A DNA stretch of 64,000 bases from Acidimicrobiia bacterium (GCA_965203555.1 CBDBCY010000002.1:99185-163184), one strand, 5' to 3'; shown: positions 42,147 to 56,635, numbered from the stretch's first letter. Notes: generated from the letters alone by a model not told the origin. Made by a program: numbers and translations.

Positions 42147-42574
42147 CACATTCCCTCCTTCGGGCCGTTCGCCATGTTCCCCCACGGACTCTTACACACA
42201 CCAGTATGGTCACCGGAGACCAAATAGACAACCCCCAATTCATCCCCACAAAAGGGGCGCCGCCCCGCCGGGAGTCGGGACCCCCGGTCGGGCGGCGACC
42301 CCCGAGGCCGGTGCTCTTCCAGGGTCCCGGCGGGAGTTCGACCTTGCAGAAAAGAGTAGAAGGCCCATGGTGTGGGGCCCCGGCAAACCGGACCATGCGT
42401 GGTGGCGGCGCTCTCTCTACGGGTGGGCGCGTAGAATTGATGGTTCGAGGCTGATGCGAGTGGCCGCTTCGCTTTTGGTTCCCATAGTTTGTGGCTTTTT
42501 GTTCCTATAATCCGCAGGACCGAACGTTGCCGGCGCCAAGGCGGTACCGGCACTCGAAAGTGTCGAGAATCTCC

Positions 42575-44902
42575 ATGACGATCTTCAAAAAATGGAAACG
42601 CCCGGTCGGGGTGCTGGTAGCCCTGTCTCTCCTCGCCGGCCTTCTGGTGGCCGTGCCCGGCAGCGCCCAGTCCACCGATCCGGAACCCAGCTACCCGGCG
42701 TCTTTCGAGGCCTGTCCCGAGGATGTGATACCCGGCGCCGATTTCGTCGACGTCCCGTCCCGTCATGACAACGCCGGCGACATCGACTGCATCGCCTACT
42801 ACGGGATCACCAAGGGCACCTCGGCCACCACCTATTCACCGGACGCCCCGGTGATCCGCGAGCACATGGCGCTGTTTCTGGTCAGGCTGGCCAGGCTGGT
42901 GGGCATAGACGTTCCCTCCGCCGGCAATACGCCCTTCACCGACATATCGGACCTGGATGCGGCTTCCCGGGAGGCCATCAGCCAGATATACCAGTTGGGG
43001 ATCACCATCGGCGCCACCGCCACCACCTATGCGCCGGCCCGGAACGTGAACCGGGGCGAGATGGCGCTGTTTCTCCAGAGGCTGATGGACCTGATGGACC
43101 CGGTGGCGGACGGGCGGACCGCCTTCGGCTACACGCCGGACGACGTCGACAGAAATGACGAGAACTTCGATATACTGTCACCCTTCCGCGACCTGGACAA
43201 CGTCACCCACTCCGTGAACGACGCGGTCACCCACCTGTACGAACTGGGGGTGGCCAGCGGGCTTTCCAGCCGCATCTACGGCCCCAACACCGACATGTCC
43301 CGCTCGGCGATGGCCGAGTTCATGGCCGCCATCCTGGACCACTCCAATCTGCGTCCCCAGGGGGTGATGGTCCAGGTGACGCCCACCCAGGGCAGGGAGG
43401 ACTTCGAGATCACGGTGATGATCTCGGTCCGCAGCGACACCTTCGCCCCTTCCGCCAACCGGGTGGTGGACTGGTTCTACACCGACGACCCGGACGGGGG
43501 GCTGGAGAGGAACGGCACCTGTGACGACGCCGTGATCCTGGGCCAGGGAGACTGCGTGTGGGACGATGACGACGACACCACCGGCCGGGACGACGGCAAT
43601 CTGTTCGTCGATTTCGACGCCACCCCGGGAGAGACCATGACCGTCTACGCCTGGATCGGTCGCCGGAACGGGGCCGTCTTCGACGACGACACCGTGGTCT
43701 TCTCCAAGGCCCAGGCAACCTCCGAGAAAGACGCCGACAGCCTGTTCGTGACCCACGACGTGCCCGTCAACGCCGCCCGGGTCGGGGGCGACGGCGCGTA
43801 CATAGTCGACTTGGATCGCCGCTCGTCGGTGGAGTTCACCATCGAACTCAGGGACGAGAACGGAGTCCGCCTGGAGAGAGAGGGGGTGGAGATAGATATC
43901 GAGGTGGAGAGCCGAGAGATAAGATTGGACGCCGACGAGACGACCAGCGGCAATGAGCCGACGCCGGATATCGACCTTGTGCTCATAGGCCGGGACTCGA
44001 CCGATGACAGCGTGGTGACAACCGACCGGAGAGGCCGGGCGGTCTTCGAGTTGGACGGCCCTTCCCGGAACGAGCGCCGGGACACCGTGACCATCGATTC
44101 CGACTGCTGCCCCAGCGAGAGGATCGAGATCGCCTGGAGCGAGAGCGACTCCATCCTGGTCTCCGCCAAGCCCGACTTCAAGCTGTATCAGCAGAGGAGC
44201 GGCACCAAGATCGAGTTCACCGTGGAATACGATCTGTTCGACCAGTACGGGGAGCCGCTGCGGGGCACCAGCGATCGCTACACGGGAAGGACCGGCACCG
44301 ACCTGACCGCCAAACTCGATTACACACTTTATAAAGCGCCGCGGCCCACTGGCCAGGGCACCGAATACGTGTTAGCTGCGTCTTCGCTAACGGCGGAAGA
44401 AGATGAGACGATGACCATCAGCCGCAGGAGTCTTACCTATGATGTGGACATCACGATCCCGGTTGCTGAACAGACGGGTAACGACTTCCTGGTGGTGGTC
44501 GAGCCCAAGATCTTCAGCGACCGAGGTACCAGTGCTGGCACCGATGACACCTTGGATCCGGGGGAGATCAGGTATGTGGCTTCGGAGAAGATAGTTGTGT
44601 GGATCGTGCGCGACGCCAACGACGAGAATGAATTCGAGCAACTCAAGGATCGTACATTGGGCGGGAGTATCCCCGCAGGCGTGACACTCGATGCCGTGGA
44701 GTTGTACGCCCCTGATCGCAAGTTCCGCACTTTCTTCACCCTGTGGAGCTACGGAAGCGCCGACCGTCTTCAGATCGCCGGTGGCGGTGACGACGTGAGC
44801 ATCGCCAAGTTCGAGGAGGAGTGGAGAGACCGGGTCAACGGCATGGAGGACATCGACGTGCTGATATACGGGTCCGGCTTCAGCTACATTCTGATCAGAT
44901 GA
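42575..44902 (+). CDS. SLH-domain surface protein (paralog 1)
   Basis: Signal peptide; three SLH-like repeats (GITKGTSATTYSP..REHMALFL; RGEMALFL; RSAMAEFM); acidic beta-rich C-terminus. Confidence 0.88.
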   Translation: MTIFKKWKRPVGVLVALSLLAGLLVAVPGSAQSTDPEPSYPASFEACPEDVIPGADFVDVPSRHDNAGDIDCIAYYGITKGTSATTYSPDAPVIREHMALFLVRLARLVGIDVPSAGNTPFTDISDLDAASREAISQIYQLGITIGATATTYAPARNVNRGEMALFLQRLMDLMDPVADGRTAFGYTPDDVDRNDENFDILSPFRDLDNVTHSVNDAVTHLYELGVASGLSSRIYGPNTDMSRSAMAEFMAAILDHSNLRPQGVMVQVTPTQGREDFEITVMISVRSDTFAPSANRVVDWFYTDDPDGGLERNGTCDDAVILGQGDCVWDDDDDTTGRDDGNLFVDFDATPGETMTVYAWIGRRNGAVFDDDTVVFSKAQATSEKDADSLFVTHDVPVNAARVGGDGAYIVDLDRRSSVEFTIELRDENGVRLEREGVEIDIEVESREIRLDADETTSGNEPTPDIDLVLIGRDSTDDSVVTTDRRGRAVFELDGPSRNERRDTVTIDSDCCPSERIEIAWSESDSILVSAKPDFKLYQQRSGTKIEFTVEYDLFDQYGEPLRGTSDRYTGRTGTDLTAKLDYTLYKAPRPTGQGTEYVLAASSLTAEEDETMTISRRSLTYDVDITIPVAEQTGNDFLVVVEPKIFSDRGTSAGTDDTLDPGEIRYVASEKIVVWIVRDANDENEFEQLKDRTLGGSIPAGVTLDAVELYAPDRKFRTFFTLWSYGSADRLQIAGGGDDVSIAKFEEEWRDRVNGMEDIDVLIYGSGFSYILIR

Positions 44903-45852: not shown

Positions 45853-46106
45853 TCCCGCCGGGGCCGTGTCGAGGGTGGGATTGTGGTTTGGGGGCGCACC
45901 TGTATTCCGCTGGTTCAGAGGTGGGGATGGGCAGCAGGTCGGGAGGTGGCGCCTCGCCCTTGTCTTCTATCCCTGGGGGTGTGCGCCCTTTGCAGAAGAG
46001 AGGGCCATCAGGGAGCACGGGACAGTAGCCCACCCCGGCGTGGCGGGCGATCAGCCCCAAGCACCTTCGTACAGGGCCCAGATCCAAGGTAATGGGGCGA
46101 GATACC

Positions 46107-47243
46107 ATGTCAATTGTGCTGGAACGTCTCTTGATCGAGAACTACAAATGCCTGGTTGACTTCGACCTGCGGCTGCAAGAGACCACGCTGCTTCTCGGAG
46201 CAAACGGATCCGGTAAGACAGCGGTATTGGATGTGGTTTATGGAATTCGCAGGCTGTTGGCGGGAGAAGTCAAAGTCACCGACCCCGTAGCATTTCCTCT
46301 ATCCACACTGACCCGTTGGCAGACCCATCGGCACCAACAATTCAAGCTCCAGGTGAGGGCGGGCAGCGAGAGCTTAACCTATTTGCTCCGAGTCGAACAC
46401 GATCCCGATATCGGTTCCCGGGTTGCCCGGGAGACGCTGAAGGGTGGGGACGGCACGGTGCTGTTCGACTTCGATATGGGAGAGGTGCAGTTGTACCGTG
46501 ACGATGGATCGGAGGGACCCGGGTATAAGACAGACTGGAGCGAGTCTGCTCTCGCACGTGTCGTTGAACAACCTGTCAACACACGGCTCACGGCCTTCCT
46601 GAACACCGTCCGCGACACCGTGGTCTGTACCATCCGGCCCTACGGCCTCCGTGCTGAGTCATCCCGAGCGGACCGACTCCTGGGGCGCTACGCCGACAAC
46701 TTTGTGGCATGGTATCGCAACGCCGTTCTGGAGAGCCCAGGTATGGCCCGCTCTCATGAAGAAGCTCTGCAACTTGTGATAGACGGCTTTGACAGTCTTC
46801 ACCTCAAACCGGTCGGCGTCGACACGCGAGAGTTGAGACTTCGCTTCGCCGACACAAACGGAAGTGGCAATAGCACCGAGCGTTACTGGCTCAGCTTCGA
46901 TGAACTCTCCGACGGGCAGCGGGCACTGGTGGTTCTTTACGGATTACTGCACCTGCGCGGCGGCGATGGTATCTCGATGTTCCTGGACGAGCCGGACAAC
47001 TGTGTGGCGCTTCCCGAGATCCAACCGTGGCTGTTGGCAATGCTCGAGTTGTGTGAGGAGACACCCTCCCAGGCCGTTATCTGTTCGCACCATCCAGAGA
47101 TGATCGACTACCTCGGGCCGAACTGCGGACTGATCCTGCGGCGCAACGCCTCCGGCGCCACCACCGCACGACCGGTCGGTCAGCAGGCGTCGCCGGGGGG
47201 CCTCAAGCTATCCGAGCTGGTGGCGCGGGGCTGGGATACGTGA
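46107..47243 (+). CDS. AAA_21/ABC-like ATPase
   Basis: IENYKCL, GANGSGKT, LSDGQR, FLDEPDN, SHHP. Confidence 0.9.
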   Translation: MSIVLERLLIENYKCLVDFDLRLQETTLLLGANGSGKTAVLDVVYGIRRLLAGEVKVTDPVAFPLSTLTRWQTHRHQQFKLQVRAGSESLTYLLRVEHDPDIGSRVARETLKGGDGTVLFDFDMGEVQLYRDDGSEGPGYKTDWSESALARVVEQPVNTRLTAFLNTVRDTVVCTIRPYGLRAESSRADRLLGRYADNFVAWYRNAVLESPGMARSHEEALQLVIDGFDSLHLKPVGVDTRELRLRFADTNGSGNSTERYWLSFDELSDGQRALVVLYGLLHLRGGDGISMFLDEPDNCVALPEIQPWLLAMLELCEETPSQAVICSHHPEMIDYLGPNCGLILRRNASGATTARPVGQQASPGGLKLSELVARGWDT

Positions 47244-47510
47244 GCAGGAATATCCGGGGAGTCCTGCTCTGCGAAGACCAGCAACACCAGGCGTTCGTTG
47301 TTCGTTTCCTCAAAAAGATGAGTTGGAACCCGCGAGATCTGCGAATCGAGCAGTCGCCGTCGGGTCGGGGATCGGCTGAGTATTTCGTACGGCAGCGATT
47401 CCCACGGGAGCTTCAATGGGTGCGCTCCAAGGGTGGGGAGCGGGTGTACCTGATCGTTTTGGTGGACGGCGACGCGTCCGGCGTGGTAGACACGAAGGCC
47501 TCGCTCAGCG
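47240..47510 (+). pseudogene. TOPRIM-like (DUF4276-like) ATPase partner, 3'-truncated
   Basis: LLCED, LIVLVDGD; GTG overlaps ATPase stop; runs into the convergent MBL stub. Confidence 0.65.
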
Positions 47511-47577
47511 ATTCTTCGCCGATCACAATGGCGCAATTGCCATGTGCGACATCCAAAATAAGCAATTCGGGACTCAC
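47508..47577 (-). pseudogene. MBL-fold (ComEC/Rec2-like) hydrolase, N-terminal stub
   Basis: ELLILDVAHGNCAIV; GTG overlaps receiver-gene stop. Confidence 0.65.
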
Positions 47578-48258
47578 ATTCTCTCCCACACTCCCGCTGG
47601 ATCCGGAGCCTGCTCGAAGTGCACGAGGAACAGGTCCTCGGCCAGTTCCGCATCGATATTGACCTTGGCGATCATCCACTCGACTCTCCTACTGCGTACG
47701 TTTTCCCTCAGGCCGTCGTCTTCGATCATGCTCAACGGTAATTCCACTGCACTGCTTGCATTCCACCCCGGGCACTATCGCCTCCATCCGGCCAAGACCC
47801 GGAGCATCGACCGATTTGATGTGAATCCCCGTTCTTCGTGGGATCCTCTGGATGGGGATGTCGCCTTCCAATTCTGCTTTGACAAGGGCGAAACCTTTGT
47901 TGATCAGGTAAGGATCGAGCATGTCCTTCCCGATCAACACCGGCACGTCAGCTCTGCAGGGCCTGATCGCTGACATTTCATCGTGGATGTATGAACTGAC
48001 AAGGAGTGAGGGCAACCGGAGAGAACGGAAAGCGCGACGCACCGCCTCGGCTCCACGGAACGGCGCATAGTTGGAGACAGAGAGCCGCTGATCGCAAATG
48101 AAGGCTTCGGTCTCCGCTTCCACCAGCCATGCGGACAGGACATCCAGGGAAGGCAGCGGCGCCTCTCGGGAAATCACATGGTGGCCGGCTTCCTCGAGCT
48201 CTCCTTGCAGCGTCCTCCGTTCATCGACGACATCGTCGACGATCGCGACCCGCATCAC
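47574..48258 (-). pseudogene. Receiver-domain protein with C-terminal extension; +1 frameshift at C4 run 47766-47769
   Basis: VAIVDD, ICDQRL; corrected frame VPGWNAS..MIAKVNIDAE..EDLF..FE. Confidence 0.8.
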
Positions 48259-50306
48259 TTCACTCCGAACAGTGGGAGTTTTACCACGAACTCTTCTCCC
48301 TTTTGGCCGATATCGGAGGCCAAATGGGCGCTGCCTCCCAGATCTGCCGCCTCGTCGCGAACGATGGTAAGGCCGATCCCGGTTCCACCGGGCGTCGTTG
48401 TCTGGCCGGGGCTCCAGATATCGGCTCTGCCGATGTTGCGGATTCCCGGACCGTTGTCCTTGACAGAAATCAGAAGGTGACCACCCGACTCCACTGTGCG
48501 TATCAGCAGTTCGCGGCCCTCGATCAGTTTGTCGGAATCCTGGAAAGCGCGGATTGCGTTGGTGATCAGGTTCGCCAGGATGGATTCCAACGATGCCGGC
48601 CGCCCCCAGATCTGCGGCGACGTGCCTACGTATTCCGTCTTCACTGTTACGTCGGAATTCTCCAGGAACGGAGCAAAGAGTTCGAGCACGCTGTCGATGA
48701 CCTGGTGTACTTTGAACACGCCGACCCTGCGTTTTTCGCGTTGCAGCAGAGTGAGCGGGATCCTGACGAAGCTTCGCAGAGCCTTGGTGGCTCGTCGCAG
48801 TAAACCGACTTGGCTTCCCAGGGAGTCGGCGTAGACGTCGCCAAGGGCTTGTTTGCCTCGGCGTTCGATAGCTCCTGCCAGTCGCTGAATACGAGTGAGG
48901 GGTCCGTCCGCCTCGTGGGCGAAGACGGATGCCGTCGTTCCGACGGTGCTGAGAGTGCGATACAACTGAAGGTCGCTCAGGATTGCCTGGCGCTCGCGAT
49001 GACCCTCCTGGTTGAGTTGGGCCAATGCCTCCTCCACGCCCTTGCGTTGGTTTTCCGGTACCCCGGCCACCGCTTCCTCCATGCCCTTGATGGCCTCCTC
49101 CAACCGTTCCTTACGCCGCACTCGTCGTTTTCTGCGTTTGCGGTCTCGTTCCTTGACGCGGCGGCGGGACATCCAATCGAGCGCGTCGCCGGCGAACGCT
49201 CGCAGTTCCGAGAAGGCGTCGTTCTCGACAAAACCGGACCTGTCGGTCTTTGCGAGGAGCATCTCCTCGGTGTCGTCCACAATGACCAGCCCGATGGAGT
49301 TGTTGGTCGATGGGCGCTCCTCGGGGCTTCGCACCCGTCGTAGATTCATCTCCAGCCAGTCATGGCCCCGGTCGCCGTAGGGATGTACGCGCAGACCTCA
49401 GTTATAGAGATGCACCCCTCCAACCTCGCGAAGCCAGTTTCGGACTTCCCCCACGGTAGCGGTTCTGTCGGCGAACGAAGCGTCGTTGAGAGTGAACTCC
49501 CAGAGTTCGAATGTTGCCGGGGGCGCCCGGTAAACGCCGGAGCGCCGCAGATCGTCGTGATCCGCTTTCCATTTCACATTCCCTCGACTATCCAATGCAG
49601 CGGCAGATCCCCGGCCATCTGTACCCAACTCGGCGCGGAGCCGGTGGCTGGCTTCGGTGAAGTACCCGCTTCTCACCAATTGCGCCAAGTCTCGGAAGTC
49701 ATCGCTGATCAACTCGGCGCTGAAACTTCGCTGCGACTCGAATGGATCGGCCAGGAGAATCAACGAGCGAGCCAGGCGTTTGGTGTCCATCCGTCCCAAA
49801 GGGCTCATCAGGTCACTAATGGCGATTGACGTCCCGAATGCTCCCGATGTGGGCCTTTTCTCGATCTCAAGAGCCACATCCTCCACCACTGGAACGTCAT
49901 CGAAGAGTCTCCAGTCGATCTCCATGCGATACTCGGTTCCCGGTTCATCCCGCGGCCTGGTCTCCAGGACAACTCTCCTCCCGAGCCTCAGCGCGGCGAG
50001 TCGGCCCAGTCCTTTTTCTCCCACCGGCAGCCTGCCCAGCCTCGTTCTCTCCCGCGGATCCTTCTCGGAGCGCCCGACCACCAGCCACCCGGCGCGGATC
50101 TGCTGAGCGGTCATGCCATCCCCGTCGTCGGAGACGATTACCTTCCCACCGTGTCGAGTCGTCTCCGACAGCGTCACCCGACACACGCGCGCATCGGCGT
50201 CGTACGCATTCTTCGCCAGTTCAATGATGCCCTGGTCAGGATGGGATACGAGTTCCTCGCCCAGCCTGGCGAGAATCGACGGCGCAAACCGGAGCGTCTC
50301 AGACAT
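48255..50306 (-). pseudogene. GHKL (MORC/HSP90-like) ATPase fused to a histidine kinase; one in-frame TGA at 49398-49400
   Basis: ELAKNAYDADA, DDGDGM, GEKGLGR; H-box FAHE, N-box NLITNA, DNGPGI, GTGIGL; both ORFs share a frame. Confidence 0.9.
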
Positions 50307-51639
50307 CAGCGGTTTCGTCCAGCCACGGCAGGCGGCTGATCGCTGATACGGTCAAATGCCTGGTGCGGATCTGTTGGTCCAACCAATCCCGGCTTCGGGG
50401 GTCGGCCAACACATCCATCAGGTTGTGGCATGAAGACTCGGCGCCGTTCTTGGGGGTTGCCACCAGCAGGTGGTTCTCAACCGCCACCGGACGGTCGCCG
50501 ACCACCAAAACACCGCCCGCCCGCCTTTTCTGACCAGGCCGGGATGTGCGACGGATCGCCACGAACGGAGGATCGAATGTCCGGCCGCTGAACCTCCTCC
50601 ACTCCCCGTCAGGATTGAACGATCCGGAAAGCGGTAGACGTCTCGGCCAAATGAACGGGTGCCGAGGCCCTGTTTCGGGGTCTCGGTGCGGCACGACCGT
50701 TCCGACACACACGTCGAAAAAGTCGCCAACCGAAGCTCCGTGATGTCGGGGCGTCCACTGCACGGGTTCGGCTCCGGAATCGGACTTGGTGCCGCGAAGG
50801 ATGAACACGTCAACATCGGTTTCTTCATCGAACACCCCACAGATGTCGATGTCCGAGATGTCCATCATCGACTCGATCAGGGAACGCCACTTCCCGTATC
50901 GAGTGCCCGACCGAAGGACGTCCGGGAGGATGGCGGTAATGGACACGCCCTTCGGCGCATATTCCAGAACCCGGATCAGAAAAACGGCCGCTTCGGAGAC
51001 ACGACCTCCGGCCCACGATGTTTCCTCGGGGACGTCCACATATCCGAACGGCGGATTGAGGACGATATGGCGGCTCCGGCTCGCCAGGCTCTTTTGGGAG
51101 CGGCCGTCGCCGACCACTACCCACGGGAACGCGTCCCGCGGCATGTCCCCGGGGGTGGCCTGTCCTGTTCGGTAGACCGCCGCCAAGAACAATCGCAGCC
51201 TGGCGGTCTCCACAAAGATCGGTTCAACATCGCACCCCAGAAGGCGTTTACCCCAGTGGTGGACAGTCGCTCCCAGGCTGTCGAAAACCGGAAGCCTCAT
51301 AGCGGATTCGATCAGCAGGTCGCCGGCGCCGCAGGCGGGATCGAAATAGACAACTTCTCCAGCGTCGTCGTGTGGCGGTGTTGGGATGGCTTTGGCCCGT
51401 ATCGCACTCGTAGTAAAGAAGGCGCCCTGTTCTCGACGCGTCTGCAGTTCCACCAGATTTCTGAGTTCAGCGGCGGCCTGGCCGTTTACGGCGTTCGACA
51501 GGGCTGCCATGTGGCTGTCCACCCCGTCATCCGCTATAGACGAAAGCAGTTCGCGAAGGTGAGAGGCGTATGTCCGGTAGTTGGTGATCATTACCTGTTC
51601 CGTGACGGGGAGGGCTTCTGGCGTTGAGTGCAAGAACAC
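50299..51639 (-). CDS. N6-adenine DNA methyltransferase (gamma class) with C-terminal TRD; start uncertain
   Basis: GAFFT, DPACGAGDLL, NPPF; stop overlaps kinase start. Confidence 0.92.
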   Translation of the reverse strand: MFLHSTPEALPVTEQVMITNYRTYASHLRELLSSIADDGVDSHMAALSNAVNGQAAAELRNLVELQTRREQGAFFTTSAIRAKAIPTPPHDDAGEVVYFDPACGAGDLLIESAMRLPVFDSLGATVHHWGKRLLGCDVEPIFVETARLRLFLAAVYRTGQATPGDMPRDAFPWVVVGDGRSQKSLASRSRHIVLNPPFGYVDVPEETSWAGGRVSEAAVFLIRVLEYAPKGVSITAILPDVLRSGTRYGKWRSLIESMMDISDIDICGVFDEETDVDVFILRGTKSDSGAEPVQWTPRHHGASVGDFFDVCVGTVVPHRDPETGPRHPFIWPRRLPLSGSFNPDGEWRRFSGRTFDPPFVAIRRTSRPGQKRRAGGVLVVGDRPVAVENHLLVATPKNGAESSCHNLMDVLADPRSRDWLDQQIRTRHLTVSAISRLPWLDETADV

Positions 51640-52153
51640 AGACCACCCTCATCCAACCATACCGCAGGCGGGCCGAACCACCATGGAATAGTCCCCGGCA
51701 ACGGCTCACGGCGGGTTTGGTCGAGAACTGAGGAGAGAGTGCCCATGTTCTGGGGCGTCTACGGGGTTGATCAATGCTGTCGACACAGCTACTGCCACGC
51801 AAGGCTTTCGGGGGACTCGGTGGCGTCTAGCTCCAGGGTCTCTACCGGGTCGACGACGCCTCAGCTCGCAGCTGGCCCGGGGTGTACCGGGTGAAGGGGG
51901 GAGGATCGGTCTTACGTGCTTCTCGTCGAAGATGTTCCTGGGGTCACCCGCGCCCTGCCTGGAATGCGACTTGCGGCAGTGAGGAAGATCGCTACTCTGC
52001 CCAAGAGACGAGGCCAATCCCTCGAGAGCAAGATGTAACGATTCGAGGGTTTGTTTGTCTTGGTGTATGTCGGGAGAGTTTGTGGCGTTTGTTGAGTTGC
52101 AGGCTCCCGGCCAAGGAAAGATTGCAATCTATTTAGAGGAGGTAAGCTTACTT

Positions 52154-54424
52154 ATGTTTGCTACTTTCAGCCGTATTCGGCGTCATGTAGCGGTGCTTTC
52201 GGCGCTTGCTTTGATGGCCAGTGTGCTGGTCGCGGTGCCTGCTGTTGCTGCTGATGACGATCCGAAGATGGACTACAAGGCGACTTTCGACGCCTGCGGT
52301 ATGGTGCCTTCGTCGGGCTTCGAGGATGTTCCGATGAGTCATGCCAACGCCGGTGACATCGACTGTATCGCCTATTACGGGATCACCAAGGGCACCTCGG
52401 CGACCACCTATTCGCCGTTGATGTCGGTGACCCGGGAGCACATGGCCCTGTTTTTGACCCGTCTGGCCGGCCTGGTCGGCATTGAGATGGCGTCCGATCC
52501 GGATGATGCGGGTTTCACCGATATCGGTGACCTGTCGATGGAGTCGCAGACGGCTGTGAATCAGTTGGCCGATCTGGGTATCACCATGGGTACTTCGGCT
52601 ACCACGTATTCGCCTGCCGATTCGGTGACTCGTGGTCAGATGGCGTTGTTCATCTCTCGGTTGATGGACAAGATGACCCCGATGATGGACGGGGATACGG
52701 CGTACGGGTACACGCCCGAAAAGGTGATAGACGTTGCTGACGGTGACGACGATGATGATCTGCCCGACAAGACGGTGATGTCGCCGTTCACCGATCTTGG
52801 CTCTGTGACCAAGTCTGCTTATGACGCGATCAGTGCGTTGTGGGAGTTGGGTGTTGCTTCGGGTATTTCTGACACGGCTTATGGTCCGTCGGCTCTGATC
52901 ACTCGTGCGTCGATGGCTGGTTTCATGGCCGCGGTGTTGGATCACTCCAACGCTCGGCCGGCCGGTGTGAGCATCCAGGCTTCCAAGACTGGGGGCTTCG
53001 GAGAGTTCGATTCCACGATCGCTGTGTCGTATCGGGATGAGATGTTCATGCCGATGGTCGATGTGTCCGTCAAGGTCTTCGACAGCATGACGGTTGGCGC
53101 GTTCAACGAGGACGGTGGCTGCTCGACGGCTTCTGAGTGTGCGTGGAGCGATGACGAGTCGTTGACCGACGCTTCGGGCAACATCTTCCAGGATGGTGAT
53201 ATCACCAACGGGAAGATGAACACCTACTACGCGTGGATGGGTGATTCTGACGCCGATGAGAACGACTTCGACGTCGACACGTCCACCCATGCGACGGTCA
53301 CTCTGTCTTCCACCACCGATGCTGTGGCACTGAAGGTCACTACTGACATCAACGAGAACTCCAGCAATAAGAACACGGTGGACATCGACGCCACAAGCAG
53401 TGTCACCCTCACCGCGCAGTTGGTCGACGGTGACGGCGAACCTGTGGCCAAGTCCGGTGTGGAGGTCAAGATCGGCGTCGCACAGGGCACCGCCACCCTG
53501 TATCCGGCGCCTGCTGCGATGAAGACCGATGATGACGGTATGGTGACCTATACCACATCCGGTCCGAAGTCCACCAAGGAGAACAACGATCCTGACCGGA
53601 TCGACACGATTACGTTCAGTTCCAATGTGGACGGCAGTACCGCCGATCCCCCCATTGCGCCTGCTACGGGTGCTGATACCGGAAATGGGACTGTTGCAGT
53701 AAGCGATAATGGTGAGACCGTGGTAGCCACGATCTTCTGGACGGACTCCGACCCGACGCTGGTCACGATTGACGCAGTCACCGACCCGGTGACTCGGGAA
53801 GCGCAGGGTTCCGGTAAGGGAAGCACTGATGACTACGCTTTCTTGAGCGGCCAGAACAAGGTGACCGTCCGATCCTCGGTGTCGTTCTACGACCAGTACG
53901 GCAACCCCGCCGGCAAGGGCAACTCGGTCCTGATCAGCATCGGGACCGGTGATGGCAGTTCCGACATAAGGACCGTGAGCAGCAGAGGCATGGCCAGGTG
54001 GACCCGCACCCTTGACGGGGAATTGGGCACCGCCGTACCCGTGACCTACGCACTCCAGGATGCCACAGGAACAGTGGCTACTCCTGTTGCGCTCACTGGC
54101 GCTCCAACCGTTACTGCCACCTCGGTGGTCCCGGTGAGACACGCCGATGACGACAGCACGGTCGCTGTCGCTGATGGTGCAATCACTGCGGTCTACGCCG
54201 ATGAGGACCGGTTCCGCATCACCGGTGCGCTGTACAGCTACGATGACGGCGACACCTTCATCAACGGCATCTCCGGCCACGATGACGAAGGCAAGCGGAT
54301 CACTCTTGATGGGTTCGAAGGACTGATCAAGCCAGGAACTGGCGGAACTGCGGGTACTGTCGAGATCGTGTTCTACGACGACGACGGTGTCAGCATCTTC
54401 CGCGTCAGCACTGTCGGTTCATAA
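52154..54424 (+). CDS. SLH-domain surface protein (paralog 2; strong RBS)
   Basis: GAGGAGGT RBS, signal peptide, 3 SLH-like repeats, own terminator. Confidence 0.92.
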   Translation: MFATFSRIRRHVAVLSALALMASVLVAVPAVAADDDPKMDYKATFDACGMVPSSGFEDVPMSHANAGDIDCIAYYGITKGTSATTYSPLMSVTREHMALFLTRLAGLVGIEMASDPDDAGFTDIGDLSMESQTAVNQLADLGITMGTSATTYSPADSVTRGQMALFISRLMDKMTPMMDGDTAYGYTPEKVIDVADGDDDDDLPDKTVMSPFTDLGSVTKSAYDAISALWELGVASGISDTAYGPSALITRASMAGFMAAVLDHSNARPAGVSIQASKTGGFGEFDSTIAVSYRDEMFMPMVDVSVKVFDSMTVGAFNEDGGCSTASECAWSDDESLTDASGNIFQDGDITNGKMNTYYAWMGDSDADENDFDVDTSTHATVTLSSTTDAVALKVTTDINENSSNKNTVDIDATSSVTLTAQLVDGDGEPVAKSGVEVKIGVAQGTATLYPAPAAMKTDDDGMVTYTTSGPKSTKENNDPDRIDTITFSSNVDGSTADPPIAPATGADTGNGTVAVSDNGETVVATIFWTDSDPTLVTIDAVTDPVTREAQGSGKGSTDDYAFLSGQNKVTVRSSVSFYDQYGNPAGKGNSVLISIGTGDGSSDIRTVSSRGMARWTRTLDGELGTAVPVTYALQDATGTVATPVALTGAPTVTATSVVPVRHADDDSTVAVADGAITAVYADEDRFRITGALYSYDDGDTFINGISGHDDEGKRITLDGFEGLIKPGTGGTAGTVEIVFYDDDGVSIFRVSTVGS

Positions 54425-54499: not shown

Positions 54500-56635
54500 G
54501 TGCTTCTCTCTTCAAGACGCCATACAGCGATAGTTACGGCCTTCTTGCTGGTGGCCGGTCTTGTGTTTGCTGCACCGGTCTCGGCTGTGGATGGTTCTTT
54601 TCCCTCGCCAAGCTATTTGGCTTCATTTGATGCTTGTGAAGACATACCGGCCTCCGACTTCGATGACCTGCCTGGTGATCAGTCTCAGGCGGACAACGTC
54701 AACTGCATCGCTTACTTCGGGATTACCAGGGGGACTTCGGCTACGACCTTCTCGCCCGCTGATCCGGTGACCCGCGAGCAGATGGCGTTGTTCCTGATCC
54801 GTCTGGCTGGCCGGGTCGGGATTGCCATTCCCTCTGCCGGCGACTTTGGATTCTCTGACATCGGCCACCTGAGCGCCGGATCCCGGGTTGCCATCAACCA
54901 GTTGGCAGGGCTGGGGATTACCAAGGGGACTTCGGCCACGACCTTCTCGCCCGCTGATCCGGTCCCCCGTTGGCAGATGGCGTTGTTCATCGCCCGGTTG
55001 ATGGACAAGATGGAACCTCCGGCCTACGGAGACTACCGATTCGGCTACACCCCGGCCGATGTGGTTGACACGTCCCTCAGGCCGGTGGATGCTCCATTCA
55101 CCGACTTGGATGGGGTTTTGAAGGACACGTTCGACACTATCAACCGGCTGTACGAATTGGGGGTCGTCGATGATGGAACAGGAGGGACTTACAGACCTTC
55201 GGTGGACATTACCCGCGCCACCATGGCCGATTTCATGGCTGCTGTGCTCGATCACTCCGGCCTACGCCCTGCGGGTCTGAACATCAAGGCCGCCAGGATC
55301 TCGGAATACGGACCCACCGAAGTCGTGTTGATGGTCTCCGTGCGAGATCCCGACTTCGGTCCGGTCGAAAGCCAGAGGGTAGATGTATTCAGCAGCGGGT
55401 TAGTGAGCGGGGGGCTGGACGAGGAAGGAGCCTGCATACCGGCGTTGGTGACCGGCGACTGCACCTGGAACGCCGATGACAGGGCCACCGACCAGGAGGG
55501 GAACATCTGGGTCACCTACCGGCTTGACGAAGGGGCTACTTCGGTGTACTACGCCTGGATCGGCGCTGGCCCCGGTACGCAGTTCGACGCCGACGAGGTG
55601 GACGAAGCCACCGTCGCGGTTACTTCCCAACCTGACGTGGCAGGGATCAGGGTCACCTCCGACGTTCGGGAACATGCTGACGGCAACAAGGTACACCTTG
55701 CCCGGACCAGGCGGGTGACTCTCACTCTCCAGGTGGTCGACCGGGACGACAGACCCTTATCCCGTCCAGGGTTCGACTTCGAGGTGGGCTTGGAGCAGCT
55801 TGTAGACGGCGCCCAGCGACTCAGGCACGGCGAAGTCCGACTGACCACCGATGAGGAGGGCAAGGCGACATTCAGGTTGGAGGGAGTCGAAGACCGAAGG
55901 GCTGACACCAATCAGACCACAGTCGATGAGGTGACCTTCAGTCATGTCGGTGAGGAAACCGGCGTTACCGATCTGTCTGATGTGGTTGTCGCCATAGAGT
56001 GGAGCGAGGAAGCTTCCCAGACCCACAAGGCTGTGGCAAGGGCACCCGACTATGTGATCATCAGGGATGACGGCGACGTTTCGATCAGGGCGTCCATCAC
56101 CCTGTACGACCAGTACGGGTTTGGTCATCGGACAGGCGCCGGTCAGCAGGTGGAGATGACCATCGGGGGACAGGACCTCTCCGCCTCAGTGAATGGGTCC
56201 GGCACCGGCACCCGAAGCGCCCGACTGCAACACGAAGAAGTCGGTTTCCCTGTGCCGGTGACCTTCATTGCAGACCCCGACGGTGACGGCGTCGATCTCC
56301 CGACCGGAGTCGATGATCCGCAAGAGGTCTACGTCCAACTGGTGACGGTGGCAACATCCAAGGACGCTGGTAACGACTTGGGAATCCACACCTTCTTCCC
56401 GAGACACAACCGCTTCACGACAGAAGTCGGCCGTGGCAACCCCGACGCCAATCTGCTCTTCTACTACAAACCTGGAGACAAGTTCAAGGCTGGGGACAGG
56501 CTTATCGCCATCGACGAGTTCGAAGAATTGCTCACCCCTTTCGAAGGCGATGAGAACTTGGCCAGGATCGACATCGTGACATACGACAGAGAAGGATCGA
56601 GCGAATTCAGGGTCACCAGGTCCGCCTCCGATTAG
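54500..56635 (+). CDS. SLH-domain surface protein (paralog 3)
   Basis: Signal peptide, 3 SLH-like repeats, shared YAWIG and LYDQYG motifs. Confidence 0.9.
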   Translation: MLLSSRRHTAIVTAFLLVAGLVFAAPVSAVDGSFPSPSYLASFDACEDIPASDFDDLPGDQSQADNVNCIAYFGITRGTSATTFSPADPVTREQMALFLIRLAGRVGIAIPSAGDFGFSDIGHLSAGSRVAINQLAGLGITKGTSATTFSPADPVPRWQMALFIARLMDKMEPPAYGDYRFGYTPADVVDTSLRPVDAPFTDLDGVLKDTFDTINRLYELGVVDDGTGGTYRPSVDITRATMADFMAAVLDHSGLRPAGLNIKAARISEYGPTEVVLMVSVRDPDFGPVESQRVDVFSSGLVSGGLDEEGACIPALVTGDCTWNADDRATDQEGNIWVTYRLDEGATSVYYAWIGAGPGTQFDADEVDEATVAVTSQPDVAGIRVTSDVREHADGNKVHLARTRRVTLTLQVVDRDDRPLSRPGFDFEVGLEQLVDGAQRLRHGEVRLTTDEEGKATFRLEGVEDRRADTNQTTVDEVTFSHVGEETGVTDLSDVVVAIEWSEEASQTHKAVARAPDYVIIRDDGDVSIRASITLYDQYGFGHRTGAGQQVEMTIGGQDLSASVNGSGTGTRSARLQHEEVGFPVPVTFIADPDGDGVDLPTGVDDPQEVYVQLVTVATSKDAGNDLGIHTFFPRHNRFTTEVGRGNPDANLLFYYKPGDKFKAGDRLIAIDEFEELLTPFEGDENLARIDIVTYDREGSSEFRVTRSASD

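Follow-up and report, generated by a model that had tools for sequence, protein, structure and literature searches.

Two-component phosphorelays are textbook transcription switches, and the question raised by the locus described here is what such a relay would control when its histidine kinase and receiver are encoded between a DNA methylase and a putative nuclease. The locus comprises four consecutive reading frames on the minus strand, between 51639 and 47413, of a 64,000-nucleotide stretch of DNA from an Acidimicrobiia bacterium (GCA_965203555.1 CBDBCY010000002.1:99185-163184); this whole stretch is called the window below, and positions are counted from its first letter. A preliminary description of the window had read the frames as a coupled operon of an N6-adenine methyltransferase, a MORC-like GHKL histidine kinase, a receiver and a metallo-beta-lactamase (MBL) hydrolase. 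Our comparative analysis suggests that the locus is probably a decayed copy of a horizontally mobile, restriction-modification (R-M)-like defense cassette, in which the relay would gate a nuclease, and in which methylase and kinase would form a chassis for exchangeable cartridges of receiver and effector.

All four genes lie where they had been placed, and the overlapping stop and start regions at 50299-50306, 48255-48258 and 47574-47577 are correct as given. The domain calls also held: a gamma-class N6-methylase, a soluble protein with a MORC-like GHKL domain and a complete histidine kinase, a receiver with no helix–turn–helix (HTH) domain, and a ComEC-like MBL. The operon as a working unit had to be abandoned, as the window copy is an array of pseudogenes: a stop codon splits the kinase, the receiver gene changes frame, and the MBL gene has shrunk to about 19 codons. 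Judged from its sequence, this copy is dead, its kinase interrupted by a nonsense codon, its receiver frameshifted and its nuclease deleted. The methylase looks intact and is the sole whole gene of the cassette here, probably an orphan in this genome. A sigma-70 scan of 47100-52100 gave no promoter-like sites. As an intact reference for this decay we used L083, a metagenome contig with the four genes in the same order and a kinase 68% identical to that of the window.

The methylase (50299-51639, minus strand, 446 aa) has FDPACGAGD as motif I and NPPF as motif IV, in gamma order, and aligns in one piece and end to end with its counterparts in L083 (65% identity) and in L097 (75%), a copy from a congener described below; no sequence relative was found for it among solved structures at E ≤ 0.1. 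The kinase pseudogene (48255-50306, minus strand, 683 codons), of GHKL(MORC-like)–coiled coil–DHp–CA architecture, consists of two open reading frames (ORFs) in the same frame, 49398-50306 and 48255-49349, whose only break is an in-frame TGA at 49398-49400; this codon was read through as X to give a joined protein of 683 residues for analysis. The position is Arg in all 17 aligned full-length homologs and falls within an invariant HLYxRGLRVxPYGD block. Since all four cassette genes terminate in TGA, the codon is a stop in this organism, and selenocysteine insertion or recoding was rejected on the same ground. Apart from the stop every catalytic motif is kept, including the H, N, G1 and G2 boxes. 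Pfam HATPase_c_3 matches residues 26-123 of the first kinase ORF (E 1.3e-15) and HATPase_c residues 251-360 of the second (about 570-679 of the joined protein; E 5.7e-16). Against solved structures, residues 437-680 of the family profile match DHp+CA kinases such as ZraS (E 1.6e-25), and the N-terminal GHKL profile matches MORC3 (E 1.2e-4) and MutL (E 9e-4). No membrane segment was detected in the kinase (19-residue hydropathy maximum 1.2), and the assembly holds no second kinase of this family. Membership of the HgiDII family of classical Type II enzymes (BbrUII/HgiDII, NF050001) was rejected, with 72.9 bits against a cut-off of 550 and a match confined to GHKL residues 11-186.

The receiver pseudogene (47574-48258, minus strand) has an open frame at 47689-48258 and a tail that runs to 47574 in another frame, following a +1 frameshift in a run of four G on the minus strand (47766-47769). 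Aligned with the window, residues 1-166 of the L083 receiver fall in one frame (62% identity) and residues 165-223 in another (54%). All that survives of the MBL gene is a GVSPELLILDVAHGN-type start at 47577, a remnant of about 19 of some 330 codons (47521-47577, minus strand) that matches residues 5-23 of the 330-aa L083 protein at 74% identity, and the break precedes every catalytic motif. No second MBL of the cassette's family was found in the assembly (3.4 Mb, 4 contigs, 95% complete); the one further match of the MBL profile in the rest of the genome is an 801-aa open frame elsewhere, which is taken to be a candidate ComEC.

Relatives of the kinase are numerous: of 8000 candidates scored, 2180 reach E ≤ 1e-3, and nearly all of the 120 relatives listed are 674-708 aa long. 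A search of genomes for loci with a single protein returned two distant kinases only, and an alignment-based search was needed; run on one genome per species, it gave at least 544 confirmed loci, of which the best 80 were kept and scanned in all six frames with hidden Markov models built for this analysis. Loci were considered judgeable with at least 1.8 kb of DNA downstream of the kinase (75 loci), at least 1.5 kb upstream (74 loci) or both (70 loci). Downstream, 67 of the 75 judgeable loci have both receiver and MBL, one has the receiver only and seven have neither; upstream, an N6-methylase is present in 48 of the 74 and missing from 26. All four genes, in the same order as in the window, are found in 38 of the 70 other-species loci judgeable on both sides, which is more than chance. 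The genes proposed to belong together thus do co-occur elsewhere, and widely. Intact four-gene cassettes are found, for example, in Geomonas propionica (L014) and Deinococcus marmoris (L068), and a trio that lacks the methylase in Anabaena azotica (L030).

The 26 loci with no methylase comprise 21 from cyanobacteria, four from Gammaproteobacteria and one further record, and a methylase was found in none of the 21 judgeable cyanobacterial loci as against 48 of the 53 non-cyanobacterial ones. One of the four gammaproteobacterial loci, from Marinomonas, has a C5 methylase downstream. The seven loci with neither receiver nor MBL belong to Streptomycetaceae, where an Eco57I-type methylase and a BsuBI/PstI-type restriction enzyme take their place; in the corresponding clade (L059, L062, L066, L069, L073, L075, L079 and L080) the GHKL-kinase gene stands behind these two. 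In the receiver-only locus (L067, 10093-11282, from a Thiomargarita metagenome-assembled genome, MAG) a PIN-domain gene (Pfam PIN_3, E 1.6e-18) starts at the receiver stop and there is no MBL; the effector may have been swapped here too, or the PIN gene may be a toxin-antitoxin gene with no link to the cassette. In a quick maximum-likelihood tree of 76 kinases with midpoint rooting (those from 75 of the 80 loci with at least 600 aa, and the window kinase read with X), the methylase-less cyanobacterial rows form one clade of 24 (support 96) beside a methylase-bearing Geomonas row, and the receiver-less Streptomyces rows form one clade of 8 (support 100) inside the four-gene Streptomyces rows. 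Phyla are intermixed in this tree rather than followed.

The GHKL residues N33, D60, G62, G64, K98, G99 and G101 (motifs D60xGxG and GxKGxG) are the sole residues seen at these positions among 82 kinase ORFs, with 2-3 rows gapped. The H-box His is present in 73 of the 82, gapped in five and replaced in four (by Q, Y, Y and R). All four replacements belong to the clade of eight with neither receiver nor MBL, in which the N-terminal GHKL motifs are unchanged. The phospho-accepting His therefore decays only where the receiver is absent, the pattern of co-variation expected if this residue serves phosphotransfer to this receiver.

On the receiving side, the acidic pair D8 and D9 and the acceptor D56 are invariant in 37 receiver rows. 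Of the classical two-component features, the H-box His, the N, G1 and G2 boxes, and the receiver Asp with its acidic pair are all present; the HTH output is absent, with no Trans_reg_C or other HTH family detected in the 37 receivers. These proteins are divergent, and Pfam Response_reg gives weak matches in 15 of the 37, the best at E 1.2e-4. In a predicted structure of a homologous receiver (pLDDT 95), residues 1-125 adopt the REC fold (Foldseek E about 1e-6 to NtrX, DesR and CheY). Matches to REC filled the Foldseek list for the whole receiver, so the C-terminal domain was modeled alone (pLDDT 89.5), with elements in the order strand-strand-strand-helix-strand-strand. Foldseek found no match to this domain at E ≤ 0.001; its best rows are OB folds, led by Teb1 OB-B (E 0.06) and followed by RMI, the RecG wedge and Stn1. 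An all-against-all structure aligner returned cold-shock, EF-P, eIF5A and DNA-ligase OB domains at middling scores (best VIA, Z 6.2, rmsd 3.3 over 75 residues), and Atlas neighbors include S1, RecO_N and HROB at TM of about 0.5. With moderate confidence, the predicted fold indicates that the C-terminal domain is OB-like and not an HTH. At E ≤ 1e-30 the receiver family counts 414 representatives; the lengths of the best 150 all stay within 214-261 aa, so REC plus barrel appears to be a stable architecture.

The MBL enzyme belongs by profile with the nuclease domains of the competence protein ComEC. Among solved structures, the MBL domains of ComEC/Rec2 are the best matches (E 2.3e-19 to 2.6e-16; 9vcb, 9vcf, 9ic4 and 30bt), and weaker matches to Apyc1-type and RNase Z enzymes follow, ComEC being ahead of Apyc1 by fifteen orders of magnitude in E-value. 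Residues H54, D58, H59, D177, H202 and H203 are invariant in 36 MBL proteins, which also share a conserved Cys/His-rich C-terminal stretch. The cassette MBL and ComEC have SHxDxDH and PHHG-type motifs in common; unlike ComEC, the cassette enzyme stands alone as a soluble protein, about 330 aa long, that has no competence channel and is extended at its C terminus by a Cys/His-rich stretch. ComEC also has an OB fold. In the cassette, however, the OB-like barrel is on the separate receiver protein and not on the nuclease chain.

Could the receiver act on the nuclease directly? We modeled the complex of the L083 MBL and the L083 receiver, each with its own alignment. The score was 0.82 in each of three runs, and 0.00 for the best of three controls; in a benchmark, 116 of 157 solved complexes and 2 of 215 mismatched pairs reached the 0.82 mark, which is only a rough guide here since own alignments were used. 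The three runs agree in at least 87% of contacts, with partner pLDDT of at least 86. All confident receiver contacts in the model are in the barrel (residues 126-229), and on the MBL they fall at residues 31-37, 57-70, 91-103 and 279-284, flanking HxDxDH. The modeled interface includes receiver residues 142-147, 163-169 and 196-204 and MBL residues 61-70 and 91-103. The model supports, rather than shows, binding of the receiver barrel to the MBL beside its metal motif. The suggestion in the preliminary description that phosphotransfer switches the MBL nuclease, read here as an output that bypasses transcription, fits both this control-passing model and the predicted OB-like domain.

How does this cassette relate to known systems? 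The preliminary description could name no characterized system with this composition, and in one respect this stands. PADLOC v2.0.0, which covers Detocs and every other system in its collection, gave no family for the kinase C-terminal half, the receiver or the MBL remnant, and only generic MTase_II (E 1.7e-9 for the methylase), REase_II and TmtA matches for the methylase and the GHKL half; NCBIfam likewise has no system model matching the kinase C-terminal half, the receiver or the MBL remnant. In another respect it does not, as the logic of the parts is shared with Ambrosia, and pairs of a GHKL-histidine kinase and a REC-like protein beside R-M genes were known by 2021. Ambrosia (AbrR-AbrA-AbrB-AbrC-AbrD; van den Berg et al. 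2025, bioRxiv 10.1101/2025.09.30.679545) is reported, in the accessible part of the preprint, to protect P. aeruginosa PAO1 against phage, and is made up of a HipB-like XRE regulator (AbrR), an N6-methylase (AbrA), a histidine kinase/HSP90-like ATPase (AbrB), a REC-wHTH protein (AbrC) and a type IV-like HNH nuclease (AbrD). As described there, every domain is required for defense, and reporters of the cluster are induced by infection. Both systems appear to cluster a nuclease and a REC protein with an N6-methylase and a histidine kinase/HSP90-like ATPase, and so to combine R-M with two-component parts. They differ, going by that text, in the effector (HNH in Ambrosia, ComEC-type MBL here, where no HNH was found), in the receiver output (wHTH in Ambrosia; here an OB-like barrel, with control predicted to be protein-protein and not transcriptional), and in range, since Ambrosia is reported from Gammaproteobacteria only while the present branch spans many phyla.

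The likeness to Ambrosia is drawn from composition and through a locus on a Klebsiella variicola plasmid, not from the Abr sequences. The Klebsiella locus is Ambrosia-like in composition: an N-6 methylase and a GHKL-histidine kinase, the latter split into three annotated pieces, are accompanied by a REC-like protein of 168 aa, a protein of 224 aa that matches HNH weakly (E 3.4e-4), and an HTH regulator nearby. Its methylase is 37% identical to that of the window over 387 aa (E 5e-88), and its kinase matches the family kinase in tblastn (E 2e-24, 25% identity, 76% coverage); between its REC-like protein and the cassette receiver BLASTP found no similarity. Because kinase and methylase are homologous and the receivers dissimilar, we read the methylase and kinase as a chassis common to the HNH-type (Ambrosia-like) loci, on which receiver and effector have been swapped.

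Two older observations bear on the kinase. Bellieny-Rabelo et al. (2021; PMC8011034) described, in the part of the paper that is accessible, kinases of HATPase_c_3, HEF_HK and HATPase_c beside Response_reg_2 proteins and R-M genes, and descent of the HEF_HK kinases from paraMORCs was proposed there. As depicted in that paper, those pairs share with the cassette a soluble HATPase_c_3 + DHp + HATPase_c kinase, a divergent REC protein, and methylases and nucleases nearby. The emphasis there is on C5 methylases, HNH_2 and Vsr, and its main text contains neither "lactamase" nor "cyanobacteria". At E ≤ 1, the HEF_HK model PF19191 matches none of 18 cassette kinases, and the Response_reg_2 model PF19192 none of 37 cassette receivers. 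Earlier, Iyer, Abhiman and Aravind (2008; PMC2292703) placed MORC-like/paraMORC GHKL ATPases in R-M operons and, in the text available, proposed DNA-looping roles for them. Like those ATPases as presented there, the cassette protein has an N-terminal GHKL domain with intact ATP-binding motifs, is associated with methylases and nucleases, and has a sporadic, laterally mobile distribution; it differs in being fused to a complete histidine kinase and paired with a receiver, and the main text of PMC2292703 contains neither "receiver" nor "lactamase". The present cassette is an effector-swapped and output-swapped relative of Ambrosia, validated in 2025, and of the pairs noted in 2021. We found no description of the MBL branch in the literature searched, and subscription journals or the supplementary gene-cluster lists of Ambrosia may contain one.

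A relay used in defense has a precedent in Detocs, where a histidine kinase and a receiver-domain effector serve defense rather than transcription. Detocs is not known to include a methylase or a GHKL-MORC module; the cassette for its part has no Detocs-style PNP effector or buffer receiver, and no match to any Detocs protein in PADLOC.

Taken together, we propose that the intact cassette would consist of an N6-adenine methylase, a dimeric soluble sensor in which a MORC/MutL-like GHKL ATPase is joined by a basic coiled coil to a DHp+CA histidine kinase, a receiver of REC and OB-like domains, and a ComEC-type MBL nuclease. The GHKL half may monitor DNA, perhaps the unmodified DNA put forward in the preliminary description, or an infection cue and would then drive autophosphorylation of the conserved His, from which the phosphoryl group would be handed to the receiver Asp, and this transfer may be what switches the nuclease. 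With the receiver barrel sitting on the MBL enzyme by its metal site, the nuclease, which presumably cuts DNA, would be turned on or off post-translationally and not via transcription. Where it is present, the methylase may exempt or mark host DNA, a role made less likely by the methylase-less loci and the Ambrosia result discussed below. Methylase and kinase would be the conserved chassis, and receiver and effector the exchangeable cartridge, with MBL here, HNH in Ambrosia-type loci and a PstI-like restriction enzyme without a receiver in some Streptomyces. A bolder version, which we offer as tentative and would not yet favor, is of a phosphorylation-gated nuclease in which a REC-OB adaptor docked on a soluble ComEC-like enzyme recreates the OB and MBL domains of ComEC in pieces, a MORC-like DNA-clamp ATPase is the trigger, and cartridges of MBL, HNH, PIN or plain restriction enzyme are swapped; in this version, the two decayed copies that spare the methylase would mean that the nuclease arm is costly or toxic. 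If the relay of this widespread family does end, as it seems to, in a receiver bound directly to a nuclease, with a MORC-like ATPase as the sensor, bacterial immunity would gain a new kind of output; what MORC-like ATPases sense in prokaryotes, a question standing since 2008, would also become accessible to experiment.

Several points weigh against the proposal of a relay-gated defense cassette. The defense role of the MBL-type cassette is a predicted one, and a non-defense role is possible. The modeled complex is that of a 68%-identical relative with own alignments, not of the window's broken genes, and the OB-like assignment rests on middling scores, with Z below 8 and no Foldseek match at E ≤ 0.001. 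The 80 loci were kept for their scores, as the best of at least 544, and so are not a random sample, and with midpoint rooting only, the statement that the methylase was lost in some lineages is tentative. An assembly error might in principle account for the TGA and for the homopolymer frameshift, but not for the MBL deletion. Marking of self by the methylase, put forward in the preliminary description, fails as a general rule: methylation-based self-marking is not general when 26 of 74 judgeable loci, including all 21 from cyanobacteria, have no methylase, and the Ambrosia preprint (bioRxiv 10.1101/2025.09.30.679545) states in its accessible part that methylation by AbrA gave phage no protection. 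Its authors favor transcriptional control.

That last view has its counterpart here, in which kinase and receiver are an ordinary transcriptional switch and the phosphorylated receiver turns on the methylase and nuclease genes upon infection. Ambrosia lends it some weight, since reporters of that cluster respond to infection and a D60A receiver mutant is reported to lose defense (bioRxiv 10.1101/2025.09.30.679545, accessible part), and an OB-like barrel could still bind nucleic acid, for example an operator. We nevertheless find it unlikely for the MBL branch, whose receiver has a predicted five-stranded barrel in place of an HTH and gives no BLASTP match to its REC-like counterpart in the Ambrosia-like locus of Klebsiella, and whose receiver and MBL genes overlap, with products modeled as a control-passing complex. 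A little less improbable is that the kinase-receiver-MBL trio is a DNA-processing or signaling module, in repair, competence or nucleotide-signal turnover, that is not immune at all and only sometimes lies beside methylases. The cyanobacterial loci are its best case, all 21 judgeable ones having no methylase and many copies lying amid housekeeping genes (transketolase, aldolase, aconitase, EF-G and ribosomal protein L10), which also counts against the defense proposal, and the MBL profile has its weaker matches to Apyc1-type and RNase Z enzymes. The trio is, on the other hand, patchy in distribution and variable in position even among cyanobacteria, and some of its loci are plasmid-borne or lie among defense genes, with TIR, SMODS, AAA_21 and toxin-antitoxin genes and integrases. 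The methylase link is strong outside cyanobacteria (48 of 53 judgeable loci), one clade has a PstI-type restriction enzyme where the receiver and MBL would be, and ComEC nuclease domains outrank Apyc1 by the margin given above.

Finally, the window copy might itself still work, its TGA and frameshift being sequencing errors or recoding and its nuclease being supplied from elsewhere. A run of four G is a typical site of long-read error, and the kinase is catalytically complete but for the stop. This is very improbable nonetheless, given that TGA ends the other genes of the cassette as well as this one, that about 19 codons are left of the MBL gene, which is now joined back-to-back to a truncated neighbor, that the 95%-complete assembly has no other MBL of this family, and that a congener carries a different set of lesions in the same cassette. 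We therefore retain the reading of a decayed, mobile, R-M-like cassette.

Evidence on mobility and on decay comes from the surroundings of the window copy. The four genes lie in a strain-specific insert of 6.2 kb (45853-52054), delimited by comparison with four congeners, that runs from an M19 dipeptidase gene to an SLH-domain gene; in the cassette-free congeners G002, G003, G005 and G013, the M19 match is less than 100 bp from the next SLH-gene match. The kinase has matches in two of 16 further genomes of the genus, one being a distant paralog (28% identity) and the other lying in G008. A conjugative Burkholderia plasmid carries a four-gene copy, annotated generically. From the absence of the insert in four congeners, the two matches among 16, the Burkholderia plasmid and the disagreement of the kinase tree with phyla, the cassette appears to be horizontally mobile. 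No direct repeats were found at the ends of the 6.2-kb insert. Paralogous SLH-domain surface-protein genes flank it (42491-44902, 52055-54424 and 54500-56635, plus strand), and the SLH–M19 dipeptidase–SLH arrangement is kept in the four congeners.

G008 holds a second, independently decayed copy, with the kinase in five frame pieces, the receiver whole, the MBL without its first 109 residues and the methylase in one piece. In this copy (L097, G008:C24, 3503-3748 and 5739-10410), the decayed cassette adjoins a fragment of the M19 dipeptidase, residues 261-342 only, and the full M19 gene is at the end of another contig; such a duplicated gene end is expected at an integration site, and no matching repeat is present in the window. 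In both congeners, the methylase is kept while the kinase and nuclease genes, and in the window copy the receiver gene too, have decayed, and the two copies are a record of the order of decay. The broken window copy is of value as such a record of how these cassettes decay and of no use as an experimental specimen, for which an intact relative is needed. Damage is uncommon in the 80 loci from other species, where the kinase is split in three, the receiver in one, and the MBL split or partial in two. A Nodosilinea chromosome (L078, 6123-14088) has a split kinase and an MBL gene interrupted by an IS66-family transposase gene, and in a Nostoc MAG (L047, 10263-10785) the MBL gene is frameshifted and truncated.

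Next to the MBL remnant, and convergent with it, is a truncated HEC-01B-like gene (47240-47520, plus strand), with a weak PADLOC match to HEC-01B (E 0.0071; ORF residues 29-92 against 27-91 of the 197 in the model). Beyond about residue 95 its ORF is the reverse strand of the MBL start, and the deletion junction is at about 47516-47521. As both genes are cut at one junction, a single deletion took both gene ends. Upstream of it lies a HEC-01A-like AAA_21/AAA_15 ATPase, a candidate defense gene (46092-47243, plus strand; PADLOC HEC-01A E 4.5e-21, Pfam AAA_21 E 1.2e-11). In this HEC-01-like pair (46092-47530, plus strand) the ATPase is apparently whole and the partner is cut after about 95 codons, and the 6.2-kb insert thus holds two decayed defense candidates.

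Outside the genus, an intact cassette in a Tepidiformaceae chromosome (L044, 885-6128 and 11787-13130) stands beside a 1012-aa ORF, an IS-like ORF, a second small methylase-like ORF and an FRG-domain gene, in what looks like a defense-island setting. Distant kinase relatives occur on conjugative Campylobacter plasmids, with 41 plasmid records matched; one of them, on the Campylobacter armoricus plasmid NZ_CP044261 (L102, 5001-9451), combines a 731-aa HATPase_c_3...HATPase_c kinase with a 340-aa protein, in which the REC domain is followed by a further C-terminal part, and a convergent C5 cytosine methylase.

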